Assembly: GCA_963774265.1 (NCBI GenBank)
Contig: CAVZDU010000001.1
Coordinates: 128,001 to 192,000, forward strand
Direction: 5' to 3'
Length of the DNA: 64,000 nt
Source: an uncultured Chloroflexia bacterium
GTDB lineage: Bacteria > Chloroflexota > Anaerolineae > CG2-30-64-16
The notes under the pieces are model-generated. The model made no database searches and was not told the origin of the DNA. It saw only the letters and a list, made by a program, of their open reading frames with translations. Shown one piece after another: positions 1,956 to 10,260 of this stretch (position 1 is its first letter; every line of letters begins with the position of its first letter). Both the position numbers and the translations under genes were made by a program.

Positions 1956-3388
1956 TTACAGATCAAAGTACAGTCTGCACTTCGTACGGGTGCGGGCGTT
2001 CGAGCACCGCGTAGTGTTCCTTCAACTTGGCCTTGATCCAGTCCAGGATCGTCTCCTCGTCGAACACATCGCCGGCCAGCAGGAAGTCCGTAGTCGGCCT
2101 GCAGCGCCTCGCACGCCTTCGCCGAGCGACGTCGGCAGCGCCTTGATCTCGGCCCGACGCTCAGGCTCCCACTTGAAGATGTTCTCGTCGATCGGTCCGA
2201 AGCCGTGCTCGGTGGGGTCGATCTTCCGCTGCACGCCGTCGATCCCCGCCATCAGCATCGCGGCCATCGCCAGGTATGGGTTGCAGGTGGCGTCGGGCGG
2301 CCGGAACTCCATGCGGACGGCCTCCGGCTGGGTGGCGTACTTCGGCACCCGGATTGCCGCCGAGCGATTGCCGGTCGAGAAGAAGCAGTTGACCGGCGCC
2401 TCGTAGCCCGGCACCAGCCGGCGATACGAGTTGGTGGACGGATTGGTGAGGGCCAGCAGCGCCGGCGCGTGGAGCAGCAGCCCGCCAATGTAGTGGAGCG
2501 CCGTCTCGCTGAGCAGGCTGTAACCCCTGCCGCGTCGTAGAACTGGTTGACCCCACGCTTGAAGACGTGCTGGTGGAAGTGCATGCCGTTGCCCGCTTCA
2601 CCGAACAGCGGCTTGGGCATGAAGGTCACGGCCTGGCCGCGACTGCCGCGCGACCATCTTGCGACACGTACTTGATCGTCTGGACCGCGTCCGCGGCCGC
2701 CAGCAGCCCCATCAGCGGCGTCTCGATCTCGCACTGCCCCGGCCCGCCGACCTCGTGATGATGGTACTTGACCGGCACGCGCATCCCTTCAAGGGTGGTG
2801 ACGATGCGGGTCCGCAGAGGCGCGAGCTGATCGCGCGGCGGGATCGCATGATAGCCGCCATGCAAGCGGCACGTAGTGCCCGGCCGCCTTCAGGGCTGTG
2901 CCAGTCGGCCTCCGCCGAATCCACCCGGTATGAGGCGACATTGACTGCCGTTGTCGTAGGCCACGTTATCGAAGACGTAGAACTCGAACTCGGGTCCCCA
3001 CCGGCTTTCGTCGCGCGATGCCTGTGTCGCGCAGGTAGGCCTCTGCCCGCTGGGCGATCACGCGCGGATCCCGGAAGTAGAGGGCCTTGGTGTCGGCCTC
3101 CACGACGCTGCAGATGAAGCTCAGGGTCGGGACTTCCCAGAAAGGATCGACGACGCCGGTGGACAGGTCGGGGATGAGCACCATGTCGCCCGACTTGACG
3201 CTCCGCAGGCCCACGCTCGAGCCGTCAAAGCCGATGCCCGCGGTCATCAGGTTCGGCGTGAACTCGCTGGCCGAGAGCGTCACATGGTGCCAGCGGCCCC
3301 AAAGGTCGCTGAACTTGAGGTCGATCATGCGGATGCCGCTCTCACGCACGAACGCGGCCGCGACATCGAAGTTCTTGAACTCTGGCAC
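1956..3388 (-). CDS. glnA: Type I glutamine synthetase (frameshifted)
   Basis: [74 protein letters not shown]; GTG start after AAAGGAG. Confidence 0.95.
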
Positions 3389-3484
3389 AACAACACACTC
3401 CTTTGTGCAGGCTCTGCGCACGGCTTACATTATCGGGTAGGTAGCGAGTAAGCGCAAAACAGCGCTTCATAAGCGACAACAGCA

Positions 3485-3514
3485 AGGCCCTCGTCATGGT
3501 CTGACGGGGGCTTT
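3485..3514. terminator. Stem-loop at the glnA/island junction
   Basis: aaggccctcgtca-tggtc-tgacgggggcttt imperfect inverted repeat. Confidence 0.5.
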
Positions 3515-3950
3515 CGTTGCGTCATTCAGGGCGCCAGGATGCCCACAGAGGCCACTGTACGGCGATCAGGGCGTTTGATACAGTGTGCTGATGGAACCTT
3601 CCTATCATGCAGGGCGTGGCGCGCGTGAGGCAGTGTGGAAGGACGGAGGGAACCCGTTTCCGCGCTTCGACTTCTCGGTGGCGCAGATGCACAACGGGAA
3701 GCTGACATGGGAGGGGCAAATGTGCGGGGCGTAGGCGGTGGAGTATGCCTCAGCGAAACTGCAGGTTGATCTGAGTCAGCGGCTGGTGTACTCATACCGA
3801 AGAGCGAGCGAGCCGGAGGACCGGCCCTGATCGCCTTCCCGTTGGGGTGGGCCGCATGGTAGGCGAACCTAGCTCCATTGTCAAGACGTTCGGAGATCGT
3901 ACCGAGCCAACTTACCGCAAGACAGGAAAGCTAGTAATTCACAGTACACT

Positions 3951-4943
3951 CTAGGCTATGTTTGCACCTTTTGAACGATTGCACTGCGCGCAGAGGAGTT
4001 GGATATTGCGTGCTGTATTGCTTCCGCCCTTGGAGACAGGGATGATATGATCATACTCTAGATTCGCTTGGCTTCCGCATTTTGCACAATGGCCTCTATC
4101 ACGTCGCCAGACGAACATCTTGACATCATCGGATATGGCTTGTCTTTCATATGCTAGGGGGTTCCGCATGTCGCCGAATATCCCTACATCATCGGGTATG
4201 GCTTGTCTTTCATATACTGGGGGGGCACCCATTTCGTCGAATAACCCTACATCATCGGGTATGGCTTGTCTTTCACATACTGGGGCGTTCCACCTTTCGC
4301 CGAACACGGCTAACGCCGCACTCGCGGTTGCTGATGTAATCACTCCATCCGCGTAGACGATGGCGTATTGGTGGACTTTCTTCAGGGCAAGCAGAGCCTC
4401 TCCAGGGCATCCATTGCTTCGTTCGGCCAGCAAATAAGAGGCTTCAACGGTGATCGCAACTCCCAGCCGGCTTGCTGATGAGGTTATTATCGTTTGCATA
4501 TCAGCCGTGCTGTAGGGATCAAGATTGAAGGCATACATCAGGTTGCCAAGTCTGTCAAGGACTTTCGATGGCCCTGAAGTTGTGCCAACTACGGTGAAAT
4601 GAGGAAGCTTCAAGCCAATCCTGCGGGCTGAAGAACCCTTCCCAACAGAAATCTCAATGCGGAATTCCTCCATAGCCCGAACCAGAAGCTCCAATATTGG
4701 TCTCCGCATTGTAACGTAGCCAGCCTGTACCAGGTAGAATCTTGCCCAGTCAACACTATTGCTGAACCGAGATGCACCACTGGAAATGGTGCCTGTGAGT
4801 TCGGCGTCGGAGATGCGGAGGCTCTCAATGATGATATCCTTCACCTCCGAAGGATGACCAGACCCGCCAAGCTTGTTTAGGGCGTCAATGATCGGACCGA
4901 AGAACTTGACGAACTTGGGGCCACCTTTGTTCGCTCTAGCCAC
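3951..4943 (-). CDS. Fusion of Mrr N-terminal winged helix, partial RuvB AAA+ core/lid, 3x21-aa repeat and HNH endonuclease
   Basis: PIIDAL..LGGSG..SEV...SG.[12 protein letters not shown]..AGY (Mrr_N); AMEEF.[21 protein letters not shown] (RuvB); VWRRD.G.CAKCG....[15 protein letters not shown]...NIQLLC..CN..K (HNH). Confidence 0.85.
   Translation of the reverse strand: [330 protein letters not shown]
4123..4306. repeat. About three copies of a 63-bp tandem coding repeat (ERQAIPDDV...)
   Basis: acatcatcgg(a/g)tatggcttgtctttca starts at 4123, 4186 and 4249. Confidence 0.9.
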
Positions 4944-4982
4944 TTGTCTGCTCCTCTGAGGGGCATGAACTGCTCTGGCAGG

Positions 4983-6198
4983 CTAAGCATTGGTTAGTAA
5001 CTTGAAATCGTGCTCGCTCACGCGATGTGTTGCCTGCACAAACCAAGCCCATGAGTTGTTCAGGTTCTTGCCCTGAAATGCGTCAAGTATGGCCCGAAGA
5101 TCGGCGTTAACGACCACTGGTTCCTGAAGGTATAGCGTCGGGTTGACGACGGAGACCACCCAGGGGAAGTCGTCGGGATGGGCGACTTTCGGATGCCGCT
5201 TCAGCTCAGGTGCGGTCGCTACACAAGCGTGAGCGATGACGCCTTTGGTGGTGGCATAAAAACAGGATCCAGTCGCCGGGTTTAATGTGTTTGCGACCTG
5301 GCGTACGGTGACCGAAGGCATAGATATGTTCTTCGCCCACCAGTTGTTGAACGCACTCCTCAGCAGTTCCCTCCTCGTCTGACTTAACAGGTGTGAGCCA
5401 ATAGACTGGGGCGGAGTTCAGCAACTCAGTGACTTCTTGAGAGACCACGGGCGAAATGACTGGTGCTGAGACCTGAGGAGCAGGAAACAAGATGTTAGCA
5501 ACGGGTGCAATTTGAGATTGCGGCGCAGTAGTCCCTTCTAGCGGCTGTGACGCTAGAAGGCTCGTAATGAGATCGACAACAGGATCAATACGTGGGCCTG
5601 AAGGGCGCAGTAGCGCCAGCACATCTTGATGGCTTACGTGATAGGCGTCCATCATATCGGCAAGCGCCAGAAGAGACTCGATAGAGAGAATGCGAAGCTG
5701 ATCCGTGCGCTTCTCCGCGACGATGGCGTTATCGAGTTGTTGTAAACCAGCATCTGGCCTGCCAACGAGGTACAGCCCCAAGGCAGTATCCCAATTCGGA
5801 ATCTTCTTTTCCGAGATCAGCGCATCCACGTAGCCGATCAGCGTCTTGGTCTTGATTGCGAAGACATCGCTGGTCTTTACCTCTACAACGATATGAAAAC
5901 CGGTGGGCGAACGCCAATATCCGTCAAAACCGATGTGTGCAGTGGTTCCTTGATAACGTCCGAAGGTGACGTCGAAACCCATAAATCTTCCAAGGTGATT
6001 GACGAGGTCCTGAAGAGCTCTGGCATAGACGTCGCCTGACTTAAGCAAGCACTCATCAATATGGTCCCGAATCACCCCTACTTGCTTGGCATTCTCGGCC
6101 AAAAAATCACGGAAACGCTCGCGGGGAGTGTCCGGACCAGGCGCGTCGTCAAGTTTGCCGACAAGTGCGAGAATCTGACTTAGGCCGATGCTTGCCAT
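4983..6198 (-). CDS. PD-(D/E)xK restriction-like nuclease with C-terminal EVE/PUA-like domain (frameshift near 5260)
   Basis: GFDGYWRSP.G.HIVVEVKTS catalytic-type motif; C-terminal YWLTPV...IKPGDWILFYATTKGVIAHA.V once the two ORFs are joined. Confidence 0.75.
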
Positions 6199-6377
6199 CT
6201 CATTCGACCTCCAGGGAAAGTTGCGTTAAGCGTGATCATCCCGGAGCCCAGGTCAACGATCCCAGTTATTGTGTAATCGGGTGCCTCTAACTCGCTAGTA
6301 GTGGCCATCAAGTCCAATATCCCAGCTTCTTTGTCGAACTCTCCATAGATAGAGTAATCTGGCGAGATACGGATCAT
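6180..6377 (-). CDS. Small hypothetical protein
   Basis: 65-aa ORF overlapping the nuclease start; no clear motif. Confidence 0.3.
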   Translation of the reverse strand: MIRISPDYSIYGEFDKEAGILDLMATTSELEAPDYTITGIVDLGSGMITLNATFPGGRMRWQASA

Positions 6378-6470
6378 CCGAGACTAGATCAAGCATCGCA
6401 AATCCGCCTTCCAGATCAATCTCTACCACTTAGTGAGTAGTCTGGGGCGTCAACAAAAGCAGACACCAGC

Positions 6471-7103
6471 TTAAGTTCGACACTGCCTGAGTGTATCGAC
6501 CCACGTGCCAGACCCCGTGTACATCGGTCCTTCCGAATAGGGCGTTGCATGAAGAACGATCTGTTTAGCTGATTGCCCCGGCACAGTCTTCTTCAGCTTC
6601 CTACCGGATGCGTGGGATCCCATCCTCGGCTCAGACGGTACTGAAGTCAGGGGAGACGCCTCGGAAGTCTTTTTCACGCCAGATCCACATTGGCTGCAGA
6701 ATCTGGCTGAGCTTGCTACTTCAGCGCCGCACTGCTTGCAGACCTGCTTTGCTGCCGTCTCTTGTTCGTCTGAGCGTAGCCACTCGATCAGGGTCATCTC
6801 CTGGTTGGCCAATGCGGTGTTTATTTGCAGCAGCGTCATCAAAACGGCACGGCACTGGGTAGCCTTCCATTGGTTTCCAAAGATAGGGCGGAGGTACCTC
6901 CTTTCTGCTTCGCCCACTTCGGCAGATAATCCCGCCATCTTTTCCTTCCTCGACCTGACCAGCGCAAGCAACTGCTCCGCCTCAGTCCTGCTCGTCCACT
7001 CTGGAACACTTAGCGTGACAACGCGGTTTTCGCCCGGTTGCGGAGTCCTAATACCAAGGACCCGTTCGATTCGGGCGAAGTACTCATCCTCCACACTGGA
7101 CAC
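6471..7103 (-). CDS. Hypothetical protein with coiled coil and zinc ribbon
   Basis: CKQCGAEVASSARFCSQCG; GAAGGAG RBS before the GTG start. Confidence 0.7.
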   Translation of the reverse strand: MSSVEDEYFARIERVLGIRTPQPGENRVVTLSVPEWTSRTEAEQLLALVRSRKEKMAGLSAEVGEAERRYLRPIFGNQWKATQCRAVLMTLLQINTALANQEMTLIEWLRSDEQETAAKQVCKQCGAEVASSARFCSQCGSGVKKTSEASPLTSVPSEPRMGSHASGRKLKKTVPGQSAKQIVLHATPYSEGPMYTGSGTWVDTLRQCRT

Positions 7104-7147
7104 TTGAATTCTCCTTCATCGTAGCTGACAGCGGCTGTGTGCGATGC

Positions 7148-7204
7148 TTTGTGTTGCCGGAAACAAATGCTACCACAGGCAGCCATGACCGCAAAGGGGA
7201 GACG
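7148..7204 (-). promoter_or_regulatory. Promoter/operator module, copy A
   Basis: Minus strand TTGCGG-16-TAGCAT followed by imperfect IR tttgtttccggcaacacaaa; homologous to 8125-8182. Confidence 0.55.
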
Positions 7205-7341
7205 ATTGTCCGAGGTTCAGCGGGCCGTGACAATAGGAGCGGTCAATCGACTGGCGGAATCGGGCGATATATTGGATCAGGTGGCAAATTCGCTGTGGCG
7301 GGATGGCGCAGCCGGAGACTGGTGCCGACGGAGTGAGGCAG

Positions 7342-7419
7342 ACGGAACGGCAATGGGTTAAGCCGCGCGTGGTCCGAGCGCAGCGAGGCGAAGTCGTCCG
7401 GTGCAACGCGTGGTGAGCC
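7342..7419 (-). repeat. Degenerate integron attC-like site
   Basis: Minus strand GGCTCAC-cacgcg-TTGCACCGGAC...cttcgcctcgctgcgctcgg...GCGGCTTAAC-ccattgcc-GTTCCGT immediately after the NYN stop. Confidence 0.55.
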
Positions 7420-7431
7420 CGCCCTCACGAT

Positions 7432-7974
7432 TTACACGGCAAGTAGCCTTAAGTATGGATTCAAAGAGATGAACTTGTCACATGAATGCTTCACCTCTTG
7501 AGAGGCATGTTCCCAGAACACAACTTCGACTCGGTATCCATCGTCACGTAATCGCTCAATGGCAGGAACGAAATCGCCATCCCCTGCAACCAGCGTTATT
7601 GTATCTTCGTTCTGATTCACACGCTTGTAAGCATCAGCGACCATAGCCGTCACAATCCCCGTATCTATCTTTTTTTCACGATTAGCCACATTACGATCAA
7701 CTATAATGGGCTCGAACCCTGCACGCTCCGCCATCATCCAGAGAATATCGTTTTTGGGTGGGCGCGACCCAAACAATGCCGCACGCCTAATGTTTTCAGG
7801 CTTCTCTCCAGCAACGAACGCGAGTAATTTGCCAAAAGCGATTCTGTAGCTAACATCTAGGATTCTGTTGTACATTGCATCCCAGATGCTCAATGCGAGT
7901 CCGTTCTCAACGGCGCTAACACGCTGACCTTCGATAAACACATTGGAGTTATCGACATAAACGTATTCAGCCAG
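7432..7974 (-). CDS. NYN-domain (PIN-like/LabA) ribonuclease
   Basis: (M)AEYVYVDNSNVFIEG, EKKIDT, LVAGDGDFVP, VEVVFW..AS; probable CTG start at 7974 after GGAGAG. Confidence 0.85.
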   Translation of the reverse strand: MAEYVYVDNSNVFIEGQRVSAVENGLALSIWDAMYNRILDVSYRIAFGKLLAFVAGEKPENIRRAALFGSRPPKNDILWMMAERAGFEPIIVDRNVANREKKIDTGIVTAMVADAYKRVNQNEDTITLVAGDGDFVPAIERLRDDGYRVEVVFWEHASQEVKHSCDKFISLNPYLRLLAV

Positions 7975-8124
7975 TAAACTCTCCGATGTCCCAATAGGCG
8001 AAACGGGCTAACAAGTCAGAATCCAGCGAACTGCTGGATATGTTACTCCGGCCACATCATCTGGAGCCGCATCTCGCGGGGTCAACGTGCCAACAGGAAG
8101 CTCTGCGGCCAACTCATACAATAC

Positions 8125-8182
8125 TTTGTGTTGCCTGAAACAAACGCTACCACAAACGGCTATCACTGCAAAACAGGAGACG
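8125..8182 (-). promoter_or_regulatory. Promoter/operator module, copy B
   Basis: Minus strand TTGCAG-16-TAGCGT plus tttgtttcaggcaacacaaa; direct repeat of 7148-7204. Confidence 0.55.
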
Positions 8183-8184
8183 GT

Positions 8185-8538
8185 TCACAGCAGGCTGTCC
8201 GCCCGCCCTTGCTTGGGGCGCTGCTCCCTGGCATCCGCTTGAGGCAGTGTGGCGTCACGGCAGGCAGCGTCACGTTTGCGTCGGCGAGGCTCAGCAGCGC
8301 GTCGGCGTACCTCATATCGCAAATGACACCGCTGGCATGGACTCGCAAGGTTGGCGGGATCGGAGTTTTGAGGATCGTGGTCCAGGTGGGCGACGGTCAG
8401 GATAGCCCGGCTTCCGGTTTCGGGGTGGGGCTGGAGGTTCGCGGCCCCGCACCATTCACAACGCCAGCCAGCCTATTTCCGGACAGCGAAGCTGATCTGC
8501 TTCCAGTTGGGCGGTTGGCGGTTGGCGTGAAACGGCAT
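8185..8538 (-). pseudogene. Phage-type HNH endonuclease with an in-frame TAG
   Basis: Manual translation MPFHANRQPPNWKQISFAVRK*AGWRCEWCGAANLQPHPETGSRAILTVAHLDHDPQNSDPANLASPCQRCHLRY; not present in the ORF track. Confidence 0.75.
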
Positions 8539-8703
8539 TACTTCATCGACCCGCTTCACCGCGGCAGCAGCCCAACGTGCAACATCCCGCACTCCCGGCA
8601 GGTGTTGTAGCGGTACTCCCAGCGCGTCCCCGTGGATTCCTCACGTTTCTTGACCCTGGCTCGCAGCGGGCGTCTTGCACCTCGTCGGGCAAGCGCGCCG
8701 GTC

Positions 8704-10260
8704 CTAATCGGTGAGCGCGGCTGTCACCGAGTTGCCGATCTCACCGCTGACAAGCAGGTCGTAGACGGCATCCATGTGCGGATACATCACTTCGTCGCGC
8801 TCGATGAATGGCACGCGTCCACGCACGAGTTCGTAAGCGGCCGCAGTTCCGCAGCCCAGTTGGGCCTCGGGCATCACCTTCCGCCTGAAGTCGATGCCCT
8901 GGCTCGCAGCCAACAACTCGATCGCCACAATTCGCCCGACGTTGCCGATGATCTGCCGCGCCCGGCGCCCGGCAATCGGTCCGTTGGATACATGATCCTC
9001 CCAGTTGGCCGATGTGGGGATCGTATCCGCGCTGGCCGGATGAACCAGCATCTTGTTCTCGGATGCGAGCGCCGCCGCGGTGTACTGAACCAGCATGAAC
9101 CCGGAGTTCAGCCCGCCCTGTTCGGTCAGAAAGTCGGGCAGGGTCTGGCGATTGCTGGAGCCATCCACCAGCCGCGTCAGGCGCCGCTCCGACATGTTGC
9201 CCAGCTCGGTGATCCCCAGCGCGAGATAGTCAAACGCGATGGCCAGCGGCTCCCCGTGGAAGTTGCCCCCGCTGATGGCAATCGGCGAACCATCGGATTC
9301 AAAGAAGATGAGGGGATTATCGGTCGCACTGTTCAGCTCGATTTCAACCACCCACCGCGTATACTTGATTGCATCGTGGCACGCGCCATGCACCTGGGGG
9401 ATGCAGCGCAAGGTGTAAGCATCTTGCACGTCCGGGTGGTCCGGCGGGCGGACAAAAGTGGAGCCTTTGAGCAACCGCCGCATCAACGCGGCCGCATCGA
9501 TCTGCCTGGGGTGCGGTCTGGCAAGGTGAAGCCGTGCGTCCAACGCCCACAGCGTGCCATGCAACGCCTCCAGGCTCAAGCCACCGGCCACATCAGCGCA
9601 TAAGGCCACATTTTCAGCCTCGACCACCGCCAGGCAGCCGAGTGCGGCCATGAGCGCGGTGCCGTTCGTCAACGCCAGGCCCTCTTTCGCCTCCAATGTG
9701 ACGGGGCCGAGCCCGGCCTGGCGCAGCGCCTCGTCACCCTTCATGCGCCGTCCCTTGTACTCTGCTTCGCCGAGACCAATCAGGACCAGTGCGATGTGGG
9801 CCAGGGGCGCCAGGTCACCCGACGCGCCCAGGGAACCCTGCACCGGCACGATGGGATGAACCCCGCGCTCGAGCATAGCGAGCAGCAGGCGAAGCGTTTC
9901 AAGACGGATGCCCGAGTGACCCTTGGCCAGCGTGTTCGCGCGAATCAGCATCATTGCGCGCACGACCGCGGTGTCAAAAGGCCGGCCCACACCCACCGCA
10001 TGGCTCATGACGATGTTCCGTTGTAAAGCGCGCACCTGGTCTGGGGGAATCACCCGGTCCTTGAACGCCCCGAAGCCCGTTGTAATGCCGTAAATGATCC
10101 GGTCCTCGGCCACGAACTGCTCGACCGCTGTGCGCGCGGCCTGCACCTTCGCCTCAGCGCCGGCCGTCAGCTTAACCGTTAGCTCGTCCGCCTTTGCGTG
10201 GGCCGCCAGCAGCACATCTTCAATCGACAGGCTTTCACCGTCCAGTTCAAGGTGATACAA
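8704..10260 (-). CDS. hutH: Histidine ammonia-lyase
   Basis: YGITTGFG, MSHAVG (His-type SH), GSLGASGDLAPL (MIO-forming ASG), KEGLAL.NGT, QDAY.LRC.PQ, GGNFHG; TTG start after AAGGAGG. Confidence 0.93.
   Translation of the reverse strand: MYHLELDGESLSIEDVLLAAHAKADELTVKLTAGAEAKVQAARTAVEQFVAEDRIIYGITTGFGAFKDRVIPPDQVRALQRNIVMSHAVGVGRPFDTAVVRAMMLIRANTLAKGHSGIRLETLRLLLAMLERGVHPIVPVQGSLGASGDLAPLAHIALVLIGLGEAEYKGRRMKGDEALRQAGLGPVTLEAKEGLALTNGTALMAALGCLAVVEAENVALCADVAGGLSLEALHGTLWALDARLHLARPHPRQIDAAALMRRLLKGSTFVRPPDHPDVQDAYTLRCIPQVHGACHDAIKYTRWVVEIELNSATDNPLIFFESDGSPIAISGGNFHGEPLAIAFDYLALGITELGNMSERRLTRLVDGSSNRQTLPDFLTEQGGLNSGFMLVQYTAAALASENKMLVHPASADTIPTSANWEDHVSNGPIAGRRARQIIGNVGRIVAIELLAASQGIDFRRKVMPEAQLGCGTAAAYELVRGRVPFIERDEVMYPHMDAVYDLLVSGEIGNSVTAALTD

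Follow-up and report, generated by a model that had tools for sequence, protein, structure and literature searches.

Mrr, an ordinary type IV restriction enzyme of mostly about 293 aa, consists of an N-terminal winged helix (Mrr_N) followed by a PD-(D/E)xK catalytic domain (Mrr_cat). RuvB is an AAA+ ATPase having Walker A and Walker B motifs, a sensor-2 arginine, a lid and a C-terminal winged helix. Between these two worlds there are proteins in which a RuvB-like AAA+ ATPase and lid are followed by an HNH nuclease module; in the databases they are named either 'HNH endonuclease' or 'Holliday junction DNA helicase RuvB'. Finally, type IV enzymes of the SruGXI group carry a complete winged helix of another family directly on an HNH module, in chains of 224-283 aa according to the parts of PMC11037411 that deal with them. 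Here we describe a gene made of pieces of such proteins. It is a single unbroken open reading frame (ORF) of 330 codons on the minus strand, at positions 3951-4943 of a 64-kb window (positions 128,001 to 192,000 of contig CAVZDU010000001.1, assembly GCA_963774265.1) from an uncultured Chloroflexia bacterium, and it joins the 5' part of an mrr gene to the 3' part of a RuvB-like AAA+-lid-HNH gene. Sequence comparison shows where both parts come from, where they meet, that the join is unique and that an intact parental mrr exists elsewhere, and it seems to us probable, at roughly two chances in three, that the ORF is a by-product of recent recombination.

The chimera shares the presensor-1 hairpin, the lid, the linker motif [14 protein letters not shown], the HNH module and the loss of the sensor-2 arginine with the RuvB-like AAA+-lid-HNH family. 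The full-length members of this family that were aligned, however, all keep the P-loop half, whereas the chimera has no full RuvB_N/AAA P-loop domain, and instead of zinc ribbons, Sel1 repeats, a ChlI/Lon-like domain or nothing at all, it has a truncated Mrr_N at the N-terminus and a triplicated linker. Mrr is the source of residues 1-77, of the start codon context and of the leader, but Mrr_cat is lacking and the winged helix is cut before its RGVWSLT strand. The hairpin and lid folds match those of RuvB, whose Walker A and B motifs, sensor-2 arginine and C-terminal winged helix are all missing. Like the SruGXI group, the chimera combines an N-terminal winged-helix-type DNA reader and a C-terminal HNH in one chain and in a defence context, as far as the relevant parts of PMC11037411 describe that group; in the chimera, however, Mrr_N is incomplete, and approximately 190 residues of ATPase debris and repeats separate the winged helix from the HNH.

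Two origins that meet at one breakpoint

The ORF starts with a GTG codon (4943-4941), and inspection of the sequence reveals a Shine-Dalgarno-like GAGGAG on the same strand at 4951-4956, 7 nt 5' of the GTG. Four Pfam domains were called in the product, all of them exceeding the gathering scores: Mrr_N (residues 11-79, profile positions 1-69 of 87, E 4.9e-13), RuvB_N (residues 79-124, profile positions 96-141 of 159, E 1e-9), AAA_lid_4 (residues 144-214, E 3.6e-12) and HNH (residues 286-327, E 1.3e-12, 48.1 bits against a gathering score of 21.4). Neither the Mrr_cat PD-(D/E)xK domain nor the RuvB_C winged helix had a Pfam match in the ORF. These calls agree with a first-pass annotation made from the sequence alone, which had described an uninterrupted 330-aa frame, without stating that it lies on the minus strand, with an Mrr winged helix at residues ~10-77, a RuvB-like middle region from just past Walker B through the lid and a complete zinc-binding HNH.

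Codons 1-77 (4713-4943) correspond, based on Pfam and tblastn, to the 5' part of canonical mrr and encode the Mrr_N winged helix without the last ~18 profile positions. Codons 78-143 (4515-4712) are a remnant of a RuvB-like AAA+ alpha/beta core, which begins just past Walker B in Pfam and in alignments to RuvB proteins of the PDB and comprises a helix, the presensor-1 beta-hairpin, the sensor-1 strand and the next helix and strand. They are followed by a RuvB-type AAA+ lid in codons 144-214 (4302-4514; Pfam AAA_lid_4), in which the sensor-2 arginine is replaced (SNGCPGEA). The HNH module of the His-Me finger type, with a CxxC...CxxC zinc site, occupies codons 266-330 (3954-4148; Pfam HNH and HNH_5, the HNH core being at 3963-4088). 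It retains C286, C289, C318 and C321 as well as D298, H299, N313 and N322, all eight of which are invariant or near-invariant columns in the family; the cysteines presumably bind zinc, and the DH...N...N residues we take to be catalytic. Between the lid and the HNH, Tandem Repeats Finder, a repeat search and the alignments agree on a 63-nt tandem repeat of 2.9-3 copies (4112-4304). It represents an in-frame triplication of the 21-aa lid-HNH linker (FG...ERQAIPDDV..), the nucleotide copies being 81-84% alike. This linker is present in a single copy in every aligned homologue, and its triplication is absent from the first-pass annotation.

When 5.8 billion proteins were searched with the whole ORF, 1272 matches were obtained at E <= 0.001, and the domain content was determined for the best 120. 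The best matches contain RuvB_N, AAA, AAA_lid_4 and HNH in 300-500 aa, many of them with N-terminal cysteine-rich repeats, and residues 79-330 (76% of the query) are 33-56% identical to such RuvB-like AAA+-lid-HNH proteins. The search scored on residues 1-85 retrieved 65 other proteins. Every one of them has Mrr_N and Mrr_cat, and the identity to residues 1-77 is 47-71% (62-71% for the closest).

The two sets of matches abut exactly. In tblastn against the window, the Mrr protein P0122 matches 4943-4713 only, i.e., residues 1-77, and the matches of RuvB-like-HNH proteins begin at 4712, 4709 or 4703 and end at 3954-3957, so that the two meet at 4713|4712 with neither gap nor overlap. The breakpoint thus lies between V77 and T78 (4712-4713), as also seen in a contig from another sample described below. 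All 80 metagenomic Mrr loci examined match the N-terminal part, and the ten best matches stop at residue 77. The Mrr origin includes the 5' end of the gene and 41 nt of leader, as a contig of a public DNA run (X2) matches 4901-4984. Past the breakpoint, seven of the next 14 residues are invariant in ten of ten canonical Mrr proteins (D78, S80, G83, V84, W85, L87 and G91); these form the RGVWSLT..G wing strand of the winged helix, and all have been replaced by RuvB-family sequence. The break cuts Mrr_N at profile position 69 of 87 and RuvB_N at 96 of 159, which is inside both domains, and the RuvB-family sequence resumes directly past the Walker B strand. The alternative offered in the first-pass annotation was a deletion chimera with mrr and a RuvB-like-HNH gene as its sources, and the abutting origins bear out such a chimera.

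The missing halves (Mrr_cat on one side, zinc ribbons and P-loop on the other) left no tblastn trace in the 64 kb, and an insertion that would have placed them elsewhere in the window was rejected on these grounds. The genome's own ruvB was likewise considered as the source of the RuvB-like piece and rejected, the identity being 38% compared to 56% for the HNH-fused family.

Among the best 120 of the 1272 matches, Mrr_N was found in the window's own protein only. When 1.84 billion representatives were searched exhaustively with phmmer, the highest-scoring match (270 bits) covered just the RuvB-HNH part; a protein with both halves should exceed this score, which speaks for a unique join. Four listed matches having Mrr_N and a further stretch turned out to be tandem Mrr_N proteins, three of which continue with Mrr_cat or GmrSD_N and one (P0301) with Mrr_N only. 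Of 40 related genomes, seven of them from the same genus, none contains the chimera gene; they show housekeeping RuvB only (33-44% identity over residues 79-214). No close relatives were found on viral contigs in a scan with the family member P0007, and the papers retrieved in a literature search on mrr chimeras were unrelated.

Contigs of three public DNA runs (X1, X2 and X3, containing 5-7% of the sampled words each) were compared with positions 3700-5500; no RNA run containing such words was listed. None of the contigs covers any part of 3883-4675, a gap that carries no weight as evidence. A 151-nt contig of X2 tracks the window over the 122 nt from 4834 to 4713 with two differences, and departs from it beyond that point. 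Manual translation of the following 29 nt of the contig in the frame of the ORF gives the canonical Mrr continuation, with nine of ten residues as in P0122. Judged by this contig, an unbroken mrr approximately 98% identical to the window is present in another sample, and the similarity ends at the breakpoint. One parent being nearly unchanged elsewhere, the event is probably recent. As for the other parent, the RuvB-HNH part deviates from the consensus (at least 90%) of a 33-member clade at one of 61 positions (E319A), other members deviating at 0-10, and such a lack of decay fits a recent event. Broken mrr genes exist elsewhere too, since the 88-aa protein P0246 from a different source, with 63% identity to residues 1-78, consists of a truncated Mrr_N standing alone.

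The RuvB-like remnant and its parent family

In phmmer against the PDB, residues 79/82-213/215 align to RuvB residues ~100-239 (best E 2.3e-16), in agreement with the by-eye match of the hairpin and of SNGCPGEA to the sensor-2 motif in the first-pass annotation. RuvB chains ranked first in Foldseek with the AlphaFold2 model, and the genome's own ruvB, which is located elsewhere, shows 38% identity over residues 79-214. The presensor-1 hairpin ([28 protein letters not shown]) aligns column for column with that RuvB. Its IGKGxSARxIxLxLPxFT stretch is the best conserved of the whole ATPase remnant and near-identical in the genome's RuvB, so that the hairpin reported in the first-pass annotation is indeed kept. 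Equally correct was the absence of Walker A, Walker B and the sensor-2 arginine: in the alignments the Walker A and B columns are filled by Mrr_N residues, and the sensor-2 region reads SNGCPGEA versus GRGTPRVA in the genome's RuvB. The DR of the Arg-finger region fared less well. The two letters are present, but HMMER aligns R131 to the proline of RuvB NPLRDRF and to neither arginine. The scores for the NCBIfam RuvB equivalogs are below the cut-offs (TIGR00635, 89.6 bits against 282; PRK00080, 80.1 against 299), and the lid is followed by the linker repeats and HNH.

The AlphaFold2 model was calculated from an alignment of 40 RuvB-HNH sequences. In it, the lid (residues 141-215) and the HNH (270-330) have predicted local distance difference test (pLDDT) values of 91-98 and 86-97, respectively, the ATPase core remnant (80-140) has 69-88, and the extra linker copies (226-264) are below 50. 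The low values of residues 1-78 are uninformative because the alignment does not cover them. The sheet of an AAA+ core has the strand order 5-1-4-3-2. By this layout the chimera keeps the helix past Walker B, the presensor-1 hairpin and strands 4 and 5; these two strands are not adjacent, and therefore the AAA+ core cannot form and the nucleotide site is absent.

The parent family (proteins P0003-P0119 and loci L015-L020) is known from Anaerolineae/Chloroflexota, Verrucomicrobiota, Acidobacteriota and Phycisphaerae metagenome-assembled genomes (MAGs). Its genes have no conserved neighbours, and in a search for related loci most of the 80 retrieved have the HNH module alone in common. Motifs were counted in 39 members aligned with the genome's own RuvB. 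The Walker A lysine is retained in 33 of the 34 members covering it. At Walker B, DE is found in seven of 35 members and EE or DD in four, and glutamine occupies the second position in the remaining 24, which take in nearly all of the clade nearest the window. None of the 39 members has the sensor-2 arginine, and the presensor-1 hairpin is nearly as in RuvB. Judging by these motifs, the family looks like an ATP-binding, poorly hydrolysing RuvB derivative in which the C-terminal winged helix has been swapped for HNH. Full-text searches of a limited literature collection found no description of such a family; the RuvB passages seen in PMC6765204 and PMC7824862 deal with other matters, and an ESM Atlas look-up of the member P0010 gave RuvB-like clusters only.

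Two loci show members or relatives of the family beside housekeeping ruvB. In a Verrucomicrobiia MAG (L019, 5005-6645 and 6671-7684), a ChlI/Lon-like plus RuvB-like-HNH gene, split in two frames, sits tail to tail with ruvB. In an Anaerolineae MAG (L086, 5368-6195 and 6289-7257), a 275-aa protein having the same C-terminal HNH is encoded 93 nt upstream of ruvB on the same strand. RuvB-HNH fusions might arise from neighbours of this kind, but in this locus the HNH gene comes first and ruvB second.

Genomic setting and quality of the assembly

The chimera is carried by a low-GC insertion of 5.3 kb (3381-8743), recognized by its GC content and by genome comparison, between a glnA-like gene and hutH. 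The GC fraction is 0.48-0.59 across ~3400-8200 and 0.62-0.70 in the flanks. In two genomes of the same genus the glnA-like gene and hutH are separated by only 175-195 nt, which locates the chimera within a strain-specific insertion. Upstream of the chimera on the same strand is a gene of an EVE-domain family (4983-6198; more than 1000 homologues of 370-410 aa), followed in the island by genes for a zinc-ribbon protein (6471-7103) and an NYN-domain protein (7432-7941). The X2 and X3 contigs diverge from the window at 4984 and 4966, respectively. Both points lie in the 39 nt that separate the chimera from the EVE-domain gene, indicating that the cassettes are combined differently elsewhere and were seemingly exchanged at this spacer.

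The NYN-domain gene is bracketed by a 52-nt direct repeat (7144-7195 and 8121-8172, 83% alike), the 30-nt core of which occurs twice in the whole genome and never in shuffled sequences; the repeats are possibly the ends of a small gene cassette. Downstream of the chimera, a 42-nt stretch (3799-3840) recurs in X1 and X3 contigs with unlike flanks on both sides and overlaps one arm of an inverted repeat (3554-3572 and 3824-3842). We noticed neither integrase nor transposase genes in the 5.3-kb block, and no tRNA gene either, although no tRNA scan was made. An Rfam scan of the island gave zero matches, a scan with promoter and terminator consensus sequences gave no usable signal, and PADLOC-DB 2.0 returned weak HNH-motif matches only (E 2.8e-5 or worse).

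Quality of the assembly deserves attention. In the same genome, ruvA and ruvC are each broken over two or three frames within 1.2 kb (L095, G000:C3:191197-194310), which points to many single-base indels, and these probably explain the completeness estimate of 84% for the 10-contig genome. A single additional T in a T-run at ~5265 also breaks the EVE-domain gene into two frames that overlap. The X1 and X3 contigs lack this base, so that the gene is whole elsewhere; the additional T is a genuine frameshift or else an error in the consensus of long reads. The contig itself is collinear with the two same-genus genomes on both sides of the island.

Origin of the chimera and its meaning

One illegitimate recombination or deletion event in a small, horizontally acquired island of defence-type genes would account for the ORF. 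It would have placed the promoter-proximal 231 nt of an ordinary mrr in front of the final ~760 nt of a gene for a RuvB-like AAA+-lid-HNH protein, with the frame preserved. By such a fusion, the winged helix would lose its conserved wing strand, the whole Mrr catalytic domain would be gone, and the AAA+ core would lose the part 5' of the break with the P-loop and Walker B, which in the textbook layout corresponds to strands beta1-beta3. The chimera is translatable because the start codon and the ribosome-binding site come from mrr. The product can neither bind nor hydrolyse ATP, nor can it assemble into a ring like that of RuvB; the lid and the zinc-binding HNH look like the only folding units left intact, and at most an unregulated or weakly DNA-tethered HNH nuclease would result. 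We infer that the event was recent and that the product has no selected function. Several observations count against this explanation, to which we give a probability of about 0.66. The junction is known from the assembly consensus alone, and the unbroken mrr is represented by one short, low-depth contig. None of the 80 Mrr loci, many of them on short contigs, has a RuvB-like-HNH neighbour, and a simple deletion between neighbouring genes is therefore not demonstrated. The open frame of 993 nt, the intact start, the Shine-Dalgarno-like site and the full set of conserved HNH residues are what a functional gene would have, and the near absence of degenerative change is equally compatible with purifying selection. 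In addition, the parent family tolerates diverse N-terminal modules, so an N-terminal swap is not foreign to it.

These same features could be read as those of a new nuclease. Its truncated Mrr winged helix would anchor the HNH on (modified) DNA, the RuvB remnant and the lid would do no more than provide spacing or a scaffold for dimerisation, and the enzyme would act in the manner of the winged-helix-HNH type IV enzymes already described. Model confidence is high for the lid and the HNH, only one of 61 conserved positions is altered, the EVE-domain and NYN-domain genes are neighbours of the defence type, and fusions of a winged helix with HNH are reported, in the relevant parts of PMC11037411, to be active in a manner dependent on N6-methyladenine. 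On the other hand, the join is off any domain boundary, the winged helix is left without its most conserved strand and the AAA+ fragments are unable to form a sheet. Furthermore, the fusion occurs once in billions of proteins and in none of the relatives, and a near-identical unbroken mrr elsewhere points to a very recent event, in which case an open frame is expected without any selection. A functional nuclease thus seems to us unlikely, yet it deserves more credit than the explanations below. That the consensus misjoins two genes or omits ~1 kb between them is quite improbable. The split ruvA and ruvC frames and the extra T do betray an indel-rich assembly, and no reads spanning the junction were at hand, the best runs containing <=7% of the sampled words. 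However, the errors seen are of the single-base indel type rather than rearrangements, the two parts are joined seamlessly, in frame and on one strand, collinearity is preserved on both flanks of the island, and the repeat search found no repeat at the junction capable of misleading an assembler.

The first-pass annotation preferred to see the protein as a RuvB mimic recruiting its HNH to complexes of RuvA and Holliday junctions, or as a decoy sensor of phage proteins that interact with RuvAB. In the mimic, the hairpin would dock on RuvA or enter RuvB rings. The conservation of the hairpin, nearly that of the genome's own RuvB, and the presence of ruvA, ruvB and ruvC in the genome would suit such a role. 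Nevertheless, the hairpin was inherited from the full-length family rather than selectively retained, half of the alpha/beta core presenting it is gone, the RuvB winged helix is absent and the RuvB equivalog scores of 80-90 bits are far from the cut-offs of 282-299. The piece is the 3' part of a full-length family gene cut in the middle of the ATPase core, and a search for homologues with the same junction, set beforehand as a test of the mimic role, found none; the fusion is both unique and apparently recent. The mimic is accordingly hard to credit. A complex prediction of residues 79-217 with domain III of the genome's RuvA gave a score of 0.05 against a mark of 0.32 and speaks neither for binding nor against it. 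An even more elaborate proposal, in which a newborn defence nuclease docks through the hairpin and lid on RuvA, RuvB or a phage protein, delivers the HNH to branched DNA and reads modification with the Mrr winged helix, appears to us just as far-fetched.

If the chimera is the recombination by-product favoured here, it is itself probably of little weight for the biology of the cell. Nevertheless, it shows in a clean natural case how defence islands make new ORFs from parts of nuclease genes that are unrelated to each other. More useful as a lead is the parent family, hundreds of RuvB-derived proteins in which the C-terminal winged helix has been swapped for HNH. Should the newborn-defence explanation be true after all, it would suggest, as a hint, that junctions bound by RuvAB are where the whole RuvB-like-HNH parent family acts.

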